DNA of 64,000 nt from Candidatus Bathyarchaeia archaeon (GCA_050013255.1 JBEKFP010000002.1:544001-608000), one strand, 5' to 3'; shown: positions 43,546 through 49,846, counted from the first letter of the stretch. Translations and numbers: made by a program. The notes: a model not told the origin generated them from the letters alone.

Positions 43546-44922
43546 ATGGAATCCACTGCAATAGACAAGTTTCGAACCAGTCTCCGTGGAGAGTTGATTC
43601 AACCGAAGGATGAAGGATACGACGCGGCCCGTAAGGTTTACAATGGTATGATCGACCGCAAGCCCCGATTTATCGTACGTTGTTCGGATGTGGCTGACAT
43701 AATCAGCTCCGTCAAGTTCGCGAAGGAGAACAAACTGCTTCTTGCAGTTCGTGGGGGCGGACACAACGGAGCAGGACTGGGAGTATGCGATGACGGGTTA
43801 GTCATAGATCTTTCCCGTAGACGGGGCATCCGCGTGAATCCTAAGAAACGCACAGTCCAAGTAGAGAGCGGCTGCACCTGGGGAGAAGTAGATCACGCCA
43901 CTCAAGCTTTTGGTCTTGCGGTACCAAGCGGAATCATTTCAACCACAGGGGTTGCTGGCCTCACGTTGGGAGGAGGACACGGTTACCTGACCAGAAAGTT
44001 CGGATTGACTATCGACAATTTGCTCGAAGCGGACCTAGTCTTGGCCGATGGGAGCTTCGTTACTGCCAACGCTGATGAAAACGAGGACCTGTATTGGGCA
44101 ATTCGCGGTGGTGGAGGAAACTTTGGTGTCGTGACATCTTTCACGTTCAAGGCGCATCCTGTTAGCACTGTCTACGCTGGCCCGATGTTGTGGCCTCTCG
44201 ATAAGGCTGTGGAGGTGATGCAGTGGTATCGTGACTTCAGTAAAAAAGCTCCCGAGGATTTGTATGGGTTCTTTGGGATCCTGAATGTGCCACCTGGCCC
44301 ACCGTTTCCAGAACAGCTCCATCGCAAAACCATGTGTGCTGTCGTCTGGTGCTACTGTGGACCGAGGGAGAAGGCTGAGGAAGTATTCCGTCCCATTCGT
44401 AAGGAAGGACCACCGGTGGTCGATTTTGTTGGGCCGGTTCCTTATTCTGGTCTGCAAGGGTTATTCGACCAACTCTTCCCTCCGGGCTTGCAGTGGTACT
44501 GGAAAGGCGATTTCGTCAACGAGTTAAGCGACGTAGCCATTAAACTGCATTTGAAATACGGCTCTGAACTTCCTTCGCTACTGTCAACCATGCACCTTTA
44601 CCCAATCGATGGCGCAGTGCACAGAGTCGGAAAGAGTGACACACCTTTCAGCTATCGTGACTCCACATGGTCCATGGTGATAGGCGGGATTGATTCGAAC
44701 CCAGCGAATAACGAACGTATCACAAAATGGGCGAAGACGTACTGGGAAGCGTTACATCCCTACTCTGCAGGAGGCGCATACGTCAATTTCATGATGGAAG
44801 AGGGACAAAGTCGAGTAGAGGCAACCTATGGTCAGAACTACAAGCGCCTATCTGAGATCAAGAGGAAATATGATCCAACGAACTTGTTCCGGGTAAACCA
44901 GAACATCCCGCCTGCTCAATGA
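43546..44922 (+). CDS. FAD-linked oxidase, BBE/6-hydroxy-D-nicotine oxidase-like
   Basis: RGGGHN (flavinylation His), GGGHG, RGGGGNFG, YVNF, KYDPTNLFR. Confidence 0.92.
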   Translation: MESTAIDKFRTSLRGELIQPKDEGYDAARKVYNGMIDRKPRFIVRCSDVADIISSVKFAKENKLLLAVRGGGHNGAGLGVCDDGLVIDLSRRRGIRVNPKKRTVQVESGCTWGEVDHATQAFGLAVPSGIISTTGVAGLTLGGGHGYLTRKFGLTIDNLLEADLVLADGSFVTANADENEDLYWAIRGGGGNFGVVTSFTFKAHPVSTVYAGPMLWPLDKAVEVMQWYRDFSKKAPEDLYGFFGILNVPPGPPFPEQLHRKTMCAVVWCYCGPREKAEEVFRPIRKEGPPVVDFVGPVPYSGLQGLFDQLFPPGLQWYWKGDFVNELSDVAIKLHLKYGSELPSLLSTMHLYPIDGAVHRVGKSDTPFSYRDSTWSMVIGGIDSNPANNERITKWAKTYWEALHPYSAGGAYVNFMMEEGQSRVEATYGQNYKRLSEIKRKYDPTNLFRVNQNIPPAQ

Positions 44923-44925
44923 GCG

Positions 44926-45630
44926 TCACTCTTCCAAAGTGACTTCGAAGTTCTCGTGGCTGATCCTTAGCCGATGCCATCGCGAATCGAAGCCCACATT
45001 ACGCATTGTCCTAATCCTAATCATGTTAACGACTTCTTCACTCTCCGTCTTAATTCTGAAATCGATTATTCCATCGCTCACGCTTTCAAGCCTCTTGTAG
45101 ACTAGACTGCTGTGCACGTCTCTGATGACGCCGCGCAGGCAAGTCATATTCCTGACCTTAAAAGCGGGGATAGATCTTGCGAGTTCGTATTCCACCCAGT
45201 TCTTCTCATCGTTGAATCTGTCCAGAACTGAAATGTCTTCCCCAATCGCCAATGTGTCTGTAGCAAGTGGTCCCTTCATCCGTACTTGAGAAACATGAAT
45301 ACTCAAGTCTGCGACCTTCAGCGAATCGGCTCCACGCTTTTCTTTTGACACTTGTCCCAACGTAGTGGTGTACCAGTCCCAGATTTCGAGGGCTCCATTA
45401 TTCTCAAGCTCCTCTGTATCTATCCCAAGTCGAACAAGTTGGTTGCGAACGCTTTCTGGTGAATGTGCGAAAGCGTAGTACTGGACCTTTCCACCAGTTT
45501 TCAACCATCCCGCGACGATGGTGGTCAATGCATTGTACCATTGCGACGCCGCGTCGAACTCCGCCAAGAGAACTGACCCAGCAGGAACGGGACCTGTACT
45601 CAAATCCTCGATTAACGGAATCCGTGGCAC
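44926..45630 (-). CDS. KaiC/RAD55-like protein 1, Walker A lost
   Basis: RecA-fold pattern (DWY, DGIIDF, IRTMR); EFDAASQW at the P-loop position. Confidence 0.8.
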   Translation of the reverse strand: MPRIPLIEDLSTGPVPAGSVLLAEFDAASQWYNALTTIVAGWLKTGGKVQYYAFAHSPESVRNQLVRLGIDTEELENNGALEIWDWYTTTLGQVSKEKRGADSLKVADLSIHVSQVRMKGPLATDTLAIGEDISVLDRFNDEKNWVEYELARSIPAFKVRNMTCLRGVIRDVHSSLVYKRLESVSDGIIDFRIKTESEEVVNMIRIRTMRNVGFDSRWHRLRISHENFEVTLEE

Positions 45631-45707
45631 AGTTGGAACACACGAACATAGTCGGGCCAGCTGGAAGTTGTGGCTTTCGGTTCAGAAGGTGTGTCTGCTC
45701 ACCATTA

Positions 45708-45764
45708 GACCCACACGAAAATCTGCGGATTCTGAAAGTAAGATTCAGAATGGCGCCGGGAGAG
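45708..45764. repeat. Direct repeat of the tRNA-Ser 3' end plus downstream flank (att-like)
   Basis: GACCCACACGAAAATCTGCGGATT...GATTCAGAATGGCGCCGGGAGAG closely matches 49684-49741. Confidence 0.85.
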
Positions 45765-45932
45765 AGCACTTAACTGAAGGTTCAACGCCTGTCTGGGGTC
45801 CCCCACCTGTATTCTCGTCGGAAACGAACTAGTTGTGCAAATCCCACCGGCTACACATTTTTCGTGGGTTCAATCACCACTGTGTGTCTAATGGTTGGCG
45901 CATATTCCCTAATAGCGGCTGCTCGCGTTTCG

Positions 45933-46646
45933 TTACTTTTCGAGTTTAACTTCGAAGTTCTCGGCGATTTTCAGTCGATGCCATCGAGAATCGAAGCCGA
46001 CGTTCCGCATGACCCTGATTCGGATGAAATTGACAACTTCACCAGCGCTCTCTTCGACCTTGAAATCTATTACGCCGTCAACTTCAGCTTCCAGACGCTT
46101 GTAGAGATAGTCGCTGTGAATCCCACCTATCACTCCGATCAGATTAGTCAGTTGATACTGCACCGTATAGGGGAAATCGCGTGTAAGCTCATATTCAACC
46201 AGGGCTTTTTCATCGTTGAATCTGCTAAGACTTGAAAGGTCGTCCATTACGATGAGGTGCGAGGGAGCCGGTCCGTAATCCTCGCTTTTCATTTCTTGAC
46301 TGGTGGAAATGCTGAGATCAGCAACCTTCAGGGAATCGAAAGTGAGTCTTTCAGTTGATTTCTTTCCGTGCGCTGCAGCGTGCCCGTCCAATATTCTCAG
46401 TCCCTCCCAGTCAAGTTTCTCAAGTTGCTCAACATCCAGTCCAAGACGTAGAAGTTTTGAGCGAATGCTGCTCGGTGATTGAGCCAAGGCGTTGTACGAG
46501 ACTGTCCCTCCTGACTTGATCCATTCCGCTACCATGGTTAGCGAGGTATTGTACCATTGGGAGGCAGCACCGTACTCCACTAGAAGATTGGATGGAGGAG
46601 GCAGCGGTTCGAACAGCAAATCTTGAATCAATGCGAGACGTGGCAG
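45933..46646 (-). CDS. KaiC/RAD55-like protein 2, Walker A lost
   Basis: Paralog; EYGAASQW; CTG start at 46646 inferred from alignment (PRLALIQDL). Confidence 0.8.
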   Translation of the reverse strand: MPRLALIQDLLFEPLPPPSNLLVEYGAASQWYNTSLTMVAEWIKSGGTVSYNALAQSPSSIRSKLLRLGLDVEQLEKLDWEGLRILDGHAAAHGKKSTERLTFDSLKVADLSISTSQEMKSEDYGPAPSHLIVMDDLSSLSRFNDEKALVEYELTRDFPYTVQYQLTNLIGVIGGIHSDYLYKRLEAEVDGVIDFKVEESAGEVVNFIRIRVMRNVGFDSRWHRLKIAENFEVKLEK

Positions 46647-46768
46647 GGTCGGTTCACATGGTCAAGATGTGCGAGCGGGAAGTTGTGGATTTCGGTTTTG
46701 TATGTGTGGGTCATATGGTGCGCATACACAAAACTAGTTTGTGCCTTCAAATCCCTTCTTCATTAGGA

Positions 46769-47410
46769 TTAGGTGCCTGCGTAATCCGCGCTCAACGCCC
46801 TGGACCGTTTTTTGCGGGACACCTTTACTCCCAGATTCCTAGCCAGGCGCCTGACTTCCTCTTCATCCAGCCACGTTACCCTCAAGTAATCAACTATCTC
46901 CTCGTCAGCCATCCCAAGCCTGCGCGCTTCCTTTATCGTGTGCTTGTACGCTTCGAGCTCAGTGGGTCTATCAACATATTCAAACCTCTTACCCAAGCTC
47001 AATAATATCTCTCTGCCATCTCTGAACTGTTTTACATGAACAAGTTCGTGAATCAGATCCAGGTAGATTTCTCGCGTTTCTCCATCCCTCAGGTAATTTG
47101 CATTGGCGATCAAGTGTCCGTCTTCGTCGCTGACCCAGATGTAGTCAGATCGAGAACGGACAAACTCCACTCGAAGGCCCGCCAAAACCTCGTCAGTTTC
47201 TTGACCAAAGATCTCACGAACCGCGCCCACCGCCTGAAATCCTTTGAAATAGTCGTTAAAACTGTGTCTCGTCTTAGAACCGCGTTTCGACGTAGGAACT
47301 TGCCGTATAATCTGTACGTTTGTCAACCCCACCATCCGGCTTGTCGCTCGCTTCAAAGTCTGCCCACTCTTATCCACGATTCCAGCAAGGCACGTACACA
47401 GTAATTGCAA
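46769..47410 (-). CDS. Putative zincin-like HExxH protein
   Basis: DLIHELVHVKQ...YVDRPTELEAY; true start probably downstream of 47410. Confidence 0.65.
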   Translation of the reverse strand: MQLLCTCLAGIVDKSGQTLKRATSRMVGLTNVQIIRQVPTSKRGSKTRHSFNDYFKGFQAVGAVREIFGQETDEVLAGLRVEFVRSRSDYIWVSDEDGHLIANANYLRDGETREIYLDLIHELVHVKQFRDGREILLSLGKRFEYVDRPTELEAYKHTIKEARRLGMADEEIVDYLRVTWLDEEEVRRLARNLGVKVSRKKRSRALSADYAGT

Positions 47411-47524
47411 GTATCATTGAAAGCTTTTCAATTAGCCGAGCATCCCTTCGAGGCTGCTAAAGTTGCTCTCGACACCCTTTTCTTTCTCTTTGTATCGACA
47501 GTAACCTAGAAGGATCCCGACCTT

Positions 47525-47968
47525 TTGTTAGAGAAGCATACTTACCACGTTTCAAAAGTCTTCAATGCTCCATTGAAATTTGTCTATGACTGGCTGACCG
47601 ATTACAAAGAGGACGATAACCAGATAACGGGCTCAAAGACGCAGTTTAAGATCTTGCAGAAAACCAAGCGTCGGGTAATCTACCTTCGGACATCTGAGCG
47701 GAACGGAAAGACTATGATCGGCGTGAAAATGGTCATGCTACGCCCGCCCAAAGCTTGGTACCTAGATCAAGTGGGAGAGGACGAGGACGCGATTGGCACC
47801 TACAAATTAACGCGAGTAGGACCAGAAAAAACGAGGCTCGATATGACGTTTACAGAAAAGTACAAGATAAGTGATGCCCCCACCAAAGAAGAAGACAGAA
47901 ACCACACCGACCAAATGTGGGATAAGTACGTGGCCGCTCTGGAGAAGGACTACGCTTCCGACCATTAA
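47525..47968 (+). CDS. SRPBCC/START-like protein
   Basis: FNAPLKFVYDWLTDY, beta meander, C-terminal helix YVAALEKDY. Confidence 0.6.
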   Translation: MLEKHTYHVSKVFNAPLKFVYDWLTDYKEDDNQITGSKTQFKILQKTKRRVIYLRTSERNGKTMIGVKMVMLRPPKAWYLDQVGEDEDAIGTYKLTRVGPEKTRLDMTFTEKYKISDAPTKEEDRNHTDQMWDKYVAALEKDYASDH

Positions 47969-48032
47969 CCACTTTAATGTATAGACGCTGAAATGGTAGA
48001 GATCGAGTGCACCGGTCTCTGGTGTGTGTAAC

Positions 48033-48746
48033 ATGCGTCTTGCGTTGATCGAGGATTTGCTAACTGAACCCTTGCCAGCTGGCTCTAATCTTTTGGTGGA
48101 GTATGACGCCGCGTCCCAATGGTACCGTGCGTCCGTGAACATCGCGAGAGAATGGCTGAGAGACGGAGGTGAGGTTGGTTATAATGTGGCGGCGCAGTTT
48201 CCAGACAGTCTACGATCTCAACTCAGGAAGCTAGGACTGAAAGTGGAAGAGTTCGAAACTGACGGGAAACTGGAGGTCTGGGACTGGTACTCCGCAACAC
48301 TTGGCCAAAAATCGAAGGAAAAGTTCGTCGGGGCCAGTAGTCTGAAAGCAGCAGACCTGAGCATAGCCATTTCGAAGGATGAATTGAAGCCTGCGATGGC
48401 TGGAGAAGCCTACCCTAGATATTTGAGAATCTGGGACAACTCATCCGTCCTGGCCAGATTCAACGACGACAGGGCCTGGGTTGAATTTCTAGTCACCCGA
48501 ATATTTCCATCGGCATTCTACACAAAGTCAACTCTGATAGTAGGAGTGATTCGGGGGGTCCACAGCGATGCGGTCTACAGACAATTGGAGGACGCAGCCG
48601 ATGGCGTGATCGACTTCAAAATTGAGGACATAGGCGAGAAGACTAGGGATGTCCTAAGGATTAGAAGCATGCGAAACGTTAGCTTTGACCGGGAGTGGCA
48701 CCGACTGAAAATTGGCGAGAACTTTGAAGTCAGCCTAGACAAGTAG
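48033..48746 (+). CDS. KaiC/RAD55-like protein 3, Walker A lost
   Basis: Paralog; EYDAASQW. Confidence 0.8.
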   Translation: MRLALIEDLLTEPLPAGSNLLVEYDAASQWYRASVNIAREWLRDGGEVGYNVAAQFPDSLRSQLRKLGLKVEEFETDGKLEVWDWYSATLGQKSKEKFVGASSLKAADLSIAISKDELKPAMAGEAYPRYLRIWDNSSVLARFNDDRAWVEFLVTRIFPSAFYTKSTLIVGVIRGVHSDAVYRQLEDAADGVIDFKIEDIGEKTRDVLRIRSMRNVSFDREWHRLKIGENFEVSLDK

Positions 48747-48869
48747 TAAGGTTGTGGCCAGTTTTTCGTGTGCGTGCGCGCACCACTAGACCAACATACA
48801 CTGGAAAACCAACCAAGAACCGAAATCTACAACTTAGAGTTCGCTTCATGCGGGTTATGTGAACGCATC

Positions 48870-49592
48870 GTGCCGCGTCTCCCCTTAATCGAGGATTTGA
48901 CCAACCGCCCAATAACCGCCGGCTCCTGGCTGATGGTCGAGTATACTGGCGCATCACGATGGTACAATGCTTGCCTCACGATCGCGGCGGGGTGGCTCAA
49001 AACTGGCGGTAGAGTTAGCTACAGTGCTTACGCTTGGCCGTCGGAGAATGTTCGTTCTCAACTGAACCTCCTCGGATTGAGGGCAGAAGAACTGGAGAAG
49101 GAAGACAGACTGCGCATTTGGGACTGGTATACGGCCACGCTGGGTCATAAATCCAAAGAGAAGCTATCCGTCGATTCGTTGAAGGTTGCTGATCTCAGCA
49201 TATTGTTCTCAAGAGAGGTAATGGCCGGTCATCCCGCCCTCGAACGACAGCCCTACGGCCCTGACTGGTTGAGAATTGCAGATAACGGCTCAACTCTGGC
49301 TAGGTTCAACGATGAGAAAGCTTGGGTGGAATTCAGACTCACTCGAGACATTCCAAGTGCGTCGTCCACGAAATCAACGGCAATCGTCGCTTTCATCAAA
49401 GGCCTACACAGCAGTTGGGCCTATGAGCAATTGGAGGCAGCGGTTGATGGTATCATAGATTTCAAGCTCGAGGAGGTGGGAGAGGAGACGATAAACCTGA
49501 TGAGGATAAGGAGTATGCGGAATGTCGGCTTTGACTCGCGATGGCATCGACTTAGGGTCAGCGAGAATTTCGAAGTCACTTTAGAAAATTAG
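48870..49592 (+). CDS. KaiC/RAD55-like protein 4, Walker A lost
   Basis: Paralog; EYTGASRW; GTG start by alignment. Confidence 0.8.
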   Translation: MPRLPLIEDLTNRPITAGSWLMVEYTGASRWYNACLTIAAGWLKTGGRVSYSAYAWPSENVRSQLNLLGLRAEELEKEDRLRIWDWYTATLGHKSKEKLSVDSLKVADLSILFSREVMAGHPALERQPYGPDWLRIADNGSTLARFNDEKAWVEFRLTRDIPSASSTKSTAIVAFIKGLHSSWAYEQLEAAVDGIIDFKLEEVGEETINLMRIRSMRNVGFDSRWHRLRVSENFEVTLEN

Positions 49593-49727
49593 TCATTCAT
49601 CTTTCGTTCTTTGTGTGTGCGGTATCAACAGGGCGAGCACTGAAAATTGAACCGTATTTTTCCCGCGTGAGTGCGCACCACTGGACCCACACGAAAATCT
49701 GCGGATTCCGAAAGATAGGATTCAGAA

Positions 49728-49846
49728 TGGCGCCGGGAGAGGGATTTGAACCCTCGAGGCCCGTGAGGACCACAGGCTTTCAGTTCCTTTGATTCCAGGC
49801 TTAGGCTCAGGTGCATCTGCCCCGTACCAGGCTCGGGAACCCCGGC
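49728..49846 (-). tRNA. tRNA-Ser (probably GGA) with two putative introns, CCA encoded
   Basis: GCCGGGG acceptor stem, G73, long variable arm, GGGTTCAAATCCC; removing 49801-49816 and 49779-49792 gives CAGGC-CT-GGA-AA-GCCTG. Confidence 0.85.

Follow-up and report, generated by a model that had tools for sequence, protein, structure and literature searches.

Four P-loop-less KaiC-fold paralogues of a Bathyarchaeia genome, a predicted non-catalytic branch of the iKaiC kind

Gene content of the locus

Analysis of a 64,000-nucleotide stretch of a soil Bathyarchaeia genome (G000; 2.46 Mb in three contigs), comprising positions 544001-608000 of its contig C2 (G000:C2:544001-608000, hereafter the window), revealed four paralogous genes, p1 to p4, that encode KaiC/RecA-fold proteins in which the phosphate-binding loop (P-loop) is replaced by a shared loop of different composition. 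An earlier note on the window had described four paralogs of ~235-240 amino acids arranged in two divergent pairs and had named the motifs that they share. Open reading frame (ORF) calls and the alignment agreed with this description, as the proteins are about 235 amino acids each with 52-58% pairwise identity, all of the named motifs are present in p1-p4, and the two divergent pairs flank genes for an HExxH protein and for a protein of SRPBCC fold. The genes are as follows, with positions counted within the window and iKaiC denoting inactivated KaiC.

44926..45630, minus strand: p1, iKaiC-type paralogue, 234 amino acids, GTG start (ORF, PF06745, AlphaFold/Foldseek)
45933..46631, minus strand: p2, iKaiC-type paralogue, 232 amino acids (ORF, PF06745, motifs)
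46769..47410, minus strand: HExxH protein, 213 amino acids, HELVH at 47036-47050
47525..47968, plus strand: SRPBCC (Bet v 1 / PYL-like) fold protein, 147 amino acids (AlphaFold and Foldseek)
48033..48746, plus strand: p3, iKaiC-type paralogue, ATG at 48033, ORF opening with GTG at 48024
48870..49592, plus strand: p4, iKaiC-type paralogue, probable GTG start at 48870, ORF opening at 48768

The true start of p4 is most likely the GTG at 48870 (MPRLPLIEDL) rather than position 48768, because the 5' extension overlaps upstream elements shared with the other genes and the paralogues all begin M-P-R-[IL]-P-L-I-E-D-L.

Fold and catalytic motifs

Structure prediction upheld the KaiC/RAD55 fold that had been proposed for the four proteins. 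AlphaFold, with a 127-sequence alignment as input, modelled p1 at a predicted local distance difference test (pLDDT) score of 96.4 and a predicted template modelling score (pTM) of 0.92. Foldseek searches with this model returned the hexameric RecA-superfamily ATPase PH0284 first (template modelling score, TM, 0.80), followed by KaiC, PH0186, SSO2452, and FlaH, the KaiC structures being matched at TM 0.69-0.76 and probability 1.0. Pfam PF06745 (KaiC; gathering cut-off 26.6 bits) matched p1 to p4 at 45.3, 27.6, 29.1, and 26.6 bits, respectively, the last score falling exactly at the cut-off, and a profile built from eight paralogues of the genome matched PH0284 at E 4e-7. NCBIfam KaiC models matched p1-p4 far under their cut-offs and a search of the ESM Atlas gave generic KaiC-domain clusters only.

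The Walker A position reads EFDAASQWY, EYGAASQWY, EYDAASQWY, and EYTGASRWY in the four paralogues, which also share SLK[VA]ADLSI, RFND, and the tail MRNV.FD..WHRL...ENFEV. A motif map was drawn from the p1 model (strand 20-25, helix from 31), the alignment to PH0284, and hhalign comparisons with active KaiC-like proteins of the same genome. On this map the Walker A Lys/Thr are replaced by W31/Y32, the former glycine-rich loop is one residue shorter and lacks glycine, and the family has Ala-Gln/His where the catalytic Glu pair would follow strand 2 (LEE in PH0284). The Walker B aspartate (D131), the sensor serine that follows it (S134), and the arginine of K-x-R-G (R210, within R-x-R-x-M-R) are retained, R210 being what we take to be the equivalent of the trans-acting arginine finger of KaiC. 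With the Lys/Thr of Walker A gone as well as the catalytic Glu pair, canonical ATP binding and hydrolysis by p1-p4 are, as judged from the sequences, very unlikely.

The best-conserved residues gather in elements of the former active site (E24, S29, W31, Y32, K105, D108, D131, S134, and R138-D141). Residues 115-126, which lie between DLSI and Walker B and which the earlier note had singled out as hypervariable, are among the most variable parts of the protein (2.4-2.6 bits; mean 1.43) and also differ in length, although residues 157-162 are equally variable. The proposed combination of a conserved interface region with variable loops was visible in the conservation profile, where the former active-site and interface region is conserved and the loops are variable. 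From the topology of the fold, in which each of the two variable loops connects a helix to a strand, both are expected on the side facing away from the former active site.

Distribution and evolutionary history

A word-based search retrieved 573 relatives, named only as 'KaiC/GvpD/RAD55 family RecA-like ATPase' or 'ATPase domain-containing protein [Bathyarchaeia]', and a HMMER scan of 1.84 billion representatives gave 742 clusters at E<=1e-3 and 103 at E<=1e-30. The motif E-[FY]-[DE]-x-x-S-x-W-[YF] occupied the P-loop position in nearly all of the 150 matches listed (representatives of 50% clustering), a true P-loop being present in a single outlier among them, and the conserved P-loop replacement with loss of the catalytic set first noted in p1-p4 is therefore kept across the family. 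Eight close copies, including p1-p4, and one distant paralogue were identified in G000, while 15 of the 22 other genomes of the genus carry 1-25 copies and seven, some of these near-complete, carry none. With a broader profile the family was found in 109 of 301 sampled Bathyarchaeia genomes and in 41 of the 43 genomes of the family-level lineage to which the window belongs, with usually one to three copies elsewhere.

The 35 loci obtained from species-representative genomes were all from soil, peat or sediment Bathyarchaeia metagenome-assembled genomes (MAGs), with one bin labelled Methylomirabilota. The latter, the DATKOK01 MAG labelled 'Candidatus Methylomirabilota bacterium', carries four family members on separate contigs (L020, L024, L039, and L040) and is probably mislabelled or mixed. 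Fragments with in-frame stops were observed in G001, G003, G004, G011, and G015, together with a 123-amino-acid remnant of p3 in G008 (L050:8399-8770). Single copies are dispensable, since some family members are broken.

Comparison of the paralogues gave ratios of nonsynonymous to synonymous substitution rates (dN/dS) of 0.10-0.23 where computable, with saturated dS. Neutral evolution, which the earlier note had named as a sign of decay that would refute its reading, was looked for among orthologue pairs of p1, p2, p3, p4, and p8, in which dS was unsaturated (0.05-0.96) and all frames were intact; dN/dS values of 0.07-0.34 instead indicated purifying selection. Within this range, p1 orthologues of 86-93% identity displayed dN/dS of 0.12-0.13, p2 orthologues in G004 and G021 0.07-0.11, the p3 orthologue 0.14-0.22, and the p4 orthologue in G019 0.34. 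A quick maximum-likelihood tree placed p1, p2, p3, and p4 in four separate clades, each of which also contained genes from other genomes (Shimodaira-Hasegawa approximate likelihood ratio test support of 100%, stems of 0.3-0.66) and, because of these well-supported cross-genome clades, p1-p4 are old paralogue lineages rather than recent tandem copies.

Fused relatives and genomic context

The same domain was also identified as the head of larger proteins, where 38 of 44 fused heads carry the same loop. In many clusters it forms the N-terminus of proteins of about 900 amino acids with a class III cyclase (PF00211), a TolB-like part, and tetratricopeptide repeats (TPR), and further architectures comprise head-cyclase, cyclase-head, head-AAA+, head-AAA+-cyclase-TPR, and head-cyclase-alpha/beta-hydrolase-TPR. 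According to the source names, the fused proteins occur in Bathyarchaeia and Nitrososphaerales/Thaumarchaeota. These fusions to cyclase, TPR, and AAA+ modules support the signalling role that had been suggested for the quartet.

In G000 the distant paralogue and p5 adjoin a 697-amino-acid protein composed of a dead KaiC head of a second type, a TolB-like part, and TPR, the C-terminal 457 residues of which are 37% identical to a head-cyclase-TPR protein, and a comparable pairing of the distant paralogue with a TolB-like-TPR protein was found in G004. The second P-loop-less head type (…LNAAASDEVP…) appears unrelated to the first and was observed at L001:4057-6150(-), L002:4245-5951(-), and G000:C1:415823-419392, among others, on TolB-like-TPR proteins, on a signal-peptide membrane protein, and on a protein of 1189 amino acids that also contains a distinct P-loop NTPase. 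Most genomes of the genus have related heads. The sole class III cyclase domain of G000 (G000:C3:44891-46111) is fused to a KaiC-like domain with Walker A (ARPGTGKS), and, judged by sequence, this protein is a seemingly active equivalent of the dead-head cyclases.

Class III cyclases are present in five of the seven genomes of the genus that lack the stand-alone family, compared to two of the 12 genomes with at least eight copies, a pattern that may follow sub-clades. Because cyclases and large expansions tend to exclude each other, cyclases are excluded as a general partner of stand-alone family members.

The HExxH and SRPBCC genes

The two genes enclosed by the paralogue pairs had been proposed in the earlier note as parts of one candidate signalling system with the quartet. 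The 'zincin' label of the 213-amino-acid protein derives from its HExxH motif alone, and searches of Pfam, NCBIfam, PDB, PADLOC, and PHROG, as well as structure searches, gave no match. The 147-amino-acid protein was modelled at a pLDDT of 77.8, and its top Foldseek matches were all PR-10, PYL, or aromatase-cyclase structures (probability 1.0, TM 0.4-0.57). In the census of the genus, the HExxH gene was present in 22 of 22 genomes and the SRPBCC gene in 19 of 22, and the pair also occurs in near-complete genomes without any family member (G002 and G022), such that it is independent of the family and a dedicated zincin-dependent system is not supported. Most family members lie far from both genes, amid unrelated metabolic genes, and the zincin part of the proposed system was abandoned.

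The link to SRPBCC retained some support from adjacency in three lineages, even though most family members are not near an SRPBCC gene. The order SRPBCC then p3 is found in G000, G007, G020, and G021, and in G008 with the 123-amino-acid p3 remnant; in a second lineage, a paralogous pair has its two genes the other way round (G020:C23), and a third is represented by a looser case in G013. This recurrence is suggestive, although the genomes concerned are related. In the window, 56-65 nucleotides separate the SRPBCC gene from the start of p3, and no separate promoter element precedes p3.

In relatives the HExxH-SRPBCC pair adjoins an S7/EF-1alpha/S10 block, and since the relatives keep the pair beside this block, the cluster of the window has been relocated. 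The zincin-SRPBCC locus carries a cyclase-TolB-like-TPR protein in G002, G008, and G022, with a gene for a cyclic nucleotide monophosphate (cNMP)-binding protein beside it in G008, and a TPR protein with a second-type head in G020.

Upstream elements, repeats and the tRNA-like gene

Two short elements, a repeat, and a tRNA-like gene were identified around the paralogues, as follows.

45663..45681, minus strand: Element B of p1 (ACCGAAAGCCACAACTTCC), 32 nucleotides 5' of the p1 start
46678..46696, minus strand: Element B, upstream of p2
48819..48837, plus strand: Element B of p4, 32 nucleotides 5' of GTG 48870
45697..45716, plus strand: Element A (GCGCACCATTAGACCCACAC-like), dispersed intergenic 20-nucleotide motif
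45880-45899 (minus strand), 46704-46723 (minus strand), 48778-48797 (plus strand), and 49673-49692 (plus strand): further copies of Element A
45691-45764 and 49667-49741: copies of the 74-nucleotide repeat
49728..49846, minus strand: tRNA-like gene, type II, with long variable arm, intron, and encoded CCA (sequence and folding)

Element B (19 nucleotides, ACCGAAATCCACAACTTCC) lies 27-32 nucleotides before the start codon in 21 of 52 distinct family members from about ten genomes and at none of the 682 other genes of the same loci. As its position fits leaderless transcripts, it is suggested to be a non-TATA core promoter of such transcripts.

Element A occurs in 62 copies in G000 (<=4 mismatches), at least 51 of which are intergenic. 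The copies mostly lie 50-100 nucleotides upstream of the next gene in the same orientation and cluster in small-gene arrays (C1:676-694k, C1:1151-1157k, C2:280-288k, and C2:742-747k). Some are placed between (GT)n and (CA)n arms able to form hairpins, with z of -2.2 and -4.7 in two of five folded, and homology blocks shared with related genomes end at Element A copies.

The tRNA-like gene was not called by ARAGORN or Rfam. The 74-nucleotide repeat consists of its last 14 nucleotides and 60 nucleotides of downstream flank; the copies are 3.98 kb apart with 88-96% identity and bracket p2, the HExxH and SRPBCC genes, p3, and p4, and no integrase or transposase was found among the ORFs of the bracketed segment. 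Outside it, the p1 orthologue of G019 lies beside ~170 nucleotides homologous to the 3' end of the flavin adenine dinucleotide (FAD)/BBE oxidase gene of the window (L005:6676-6918; oxidase gene at 43546-44922), and because of this adjoining remnant p1 is suggested to have moved along with a short piece of its flank.

Proposed function and alternative explanations

The explanation favoured here, at slightly better than even confidence, is that p1-p4 are stand-alone members of a P-loop-less KaiC/RecA-fold branch of iKaiC proteins and act as non-catalytic oligomerising adaptors or input modules, through a mechanism that we infer as follows. The acidic/aromatic loop E-[FY]-[DE]-x-x-S-x-W-[YF] would fill the former phosphate site and, together with the Arg cluster (R-x-R-x-M-R) of the neighbouring subunit, would keep a KaiC-like ring interface without nucleotide, while the variable helix-to-strand loops (about 115-126 and 157-162) would give each paralogue its own partner surface. 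In this reading the stand-alone copies, alone or in mixed rings, would work in trans and, as co-regulated proteins, would adapt or modulate signalling proteins such as TPR scaffolds, cyclases where present, and SRPBCC ligand binders.

Several points weigh against this explanation. The ring interface and the mimicry of phosphate are read from motif positions, the stand-alone forms no longer have counterparts of the Lys and His residues that surround the arginine finger in KaiC, and the invariant K105 and S29 leave room for non-canonical nucleotide binding. Most large stand-alone expansions are without any class III cyclase (25 copies and no cyclase in G016), and clustering of the neighbours over 47 loci revealed no constant neighbour of the stand-alone genes, the neighbours being syntenic metabolic and transport genes (luciferase-like, aminotransferase, MFS, LysE, 3-hydroxyacyl-CoA dehydrogenase, and cupredoxin). 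A more far-reaching version, in which the loop mimics nucleotide and 8-25 co-regulated paralogues mix into combinatorial hetero-hexamers with the variable face encoding partner specificity, is considered quite unlikely; such a nucleotide-free, paralogue-coded hub would have SRPBCC inputs and TPR, cyclase, or AAA+ outputs.

The gathering of conserved residues where the active site was would also suit a small-molecule sensor, in which the remodelled former ATP site of a MEDS-like domain would bind a nucleotide derivative, a cNMP, or a metabolite, and this reading, the one preferred in the earlier note, is given a clearly lesser probability. The N-terminal placement of the fused heads, typical of input domains, points the same way, as do weak matches to MEDS (PF14417) at 16.8-18.7 bits, but the latter cover the N-terminal third only and lie below the cut-off of 29.8 bits, and the shorter Trp/Tyr loop may fill rather than open the pocket. 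Retention of the K-x-R-G arginine raises the alternative that the dead copies join rings of active KaiC-like ATPases, donate the arginine finger, and tune their ATPase or autokinase activity. Partners for such rings would be at hand, as the genome encodes at least eight KaiC-like ORFs with intact Walker A, and the earlier statement that no active KaiC lies nearby holds for the flanking 10 kb and not for the genome elsewhere. No active KaiC adjoins the paralogues at the eight loci of G000 or at 35 loci elsewhere, however, one active KaiC-like copy being separated from p7 by 3 kb that include a large gene, and the alternative is regarded as unlikely.

Variation from 0 to 25 copies within one genus, occasional fragments with stop codons, the 3.9-kb segment bracketed by a 74-nucleotide repeat that includes a tRNA 3' end, the breaks in synteny at Element A, and the different location of the cluster in relatives would all be expected if the genes were cargo of a mobile or defence island, with copy-number variation and tRNA-flanked repeats stemming from selfish or anti-virus genes. 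Against this stand the lack of PADLOC or PHROG matches, the lack of an integrase or transposase in the segment, the age of the orthogroups and their purifying selection, and the nature of the fusions as signalling modules, leaving such an origin highly improbable. Least probable of all, to an extreme degree, is that p1-p4 are decaying pseudo-enzymes without function; the catalytic motifs are gone and a few relatives are truncated or carry stop codons, but the low dN/dS of the orthologues, the four intact frames, and the conservation of the replacement motif across hundreds of clusters all counter decay, which the dN/dS values of paralogues and orthologues already refute.

Comparison with known systems

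The best matches of p1-p4 in both structure and sequence are the RAD55-type, single-domain archaeal ATPases PH0284, PH0186, and SSO2452 (UPF0273), with which they share length and topology as well as the Walker B Asp, the MR(G) motif, and the T-A-x-x-G-K-S-K-E loop. They differ at Walker A, which is intact in the RAD55-type proteins and a Trp/Tyr loop in p1-p4, and at the catalytic Glu pair, which is Ala-Gln/His in p1-p4. Compared to the class III cyclase/TolB-like/TPR proteins, a common but uncharacterised architecture of bacterial type in which the family head is the N-terminus of the versions of about 900 amino acids, p1-p4 consist of the head only; cyclase-TPR proteins of relatives sit at the same zincin-SRPBCC locus, whereas the one cyclase of G000 is fused to a P-loop-intact KaiC domain. 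ArlH/FlaH, which is among the structural matches, also has a single-domain KaiC fold and works via protein contacts rather than turnover, as is proposed here for p1-p4. Unlike in p1-p4, Walker A is retained in ArlH, which binds ATP; NCBIfam ArlH/FlaH models score only 11.8-13.9 bits here (cut-offs 194-215), and no archaellum genes lie nearby. The KaiABC clock combines a double-domain KaiC with KaiB, whereas p1-p4 are single domains of about 235 amino acids and a profile search of the whole genome revealed no KaiB above cut-off.

A eukaryotic precedent for a RecA-fold pseudo-ATPase hetero-hexamer is Elp4/5/6, in which paralogous subunits without canonical P-loops form a ring that binds partners. 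The likeness to p1-p4 is one of analogy only, as Elp4/5/6 is eukaryotic and gave no sequence match. It has been proposed that the main native signalling hubs of archaea are KaiC-like proteins, of which, to our knowledge, almost none have been studied beyond the archaellum and haloarchaeal cases. A single loop motif suffices to recognise the present branch, which is abundant in soil and peat Bathyarchaeia; its fusions to cAMP-type cyclases offer a handle on signalling by dead KaiC domains and on cyclic-nucleotide control in archaea, and the shared promoter element defines a testable regulon.

The closest known kind is that of the iKaiC domains (MEDS PF14417, DUF835 PF05763, and iKaiC-REC), which are archaeal signalling modules (Makarova, Galperin and Koonin 2017, as cited in PMC5847659). 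As inactivated KaiC domains are already described (PMC5847659), the 'undescribed' system put forward in the earlier note cannot be called new in kind. The family displays the features by which iKaiC is defined, namely KaiC homology with disrupted motifs and signalling architectures, and p1-p4 are accordingly assigned, on sequence grounds, to a real, selected, and predicted non-catalytic KaiC-fold family that is a new branch of the known iKaiC kind and not a new kind of system. The branch is like other iKaiC proteins in its KaiC homology, its disrupted ATPase motifs, its stand-alone and fused forms, and its lineage-specific expansion. It gave no match to DUF835 and differs in its own loop, in having class III cyclase, TolB-like, TPR, and AAA+ partners rather than REC or histidine kinases, and in the stand-alone expansion to up to 25 copies, with a shared promoter element, in one soil Bathyarchaeia genus.

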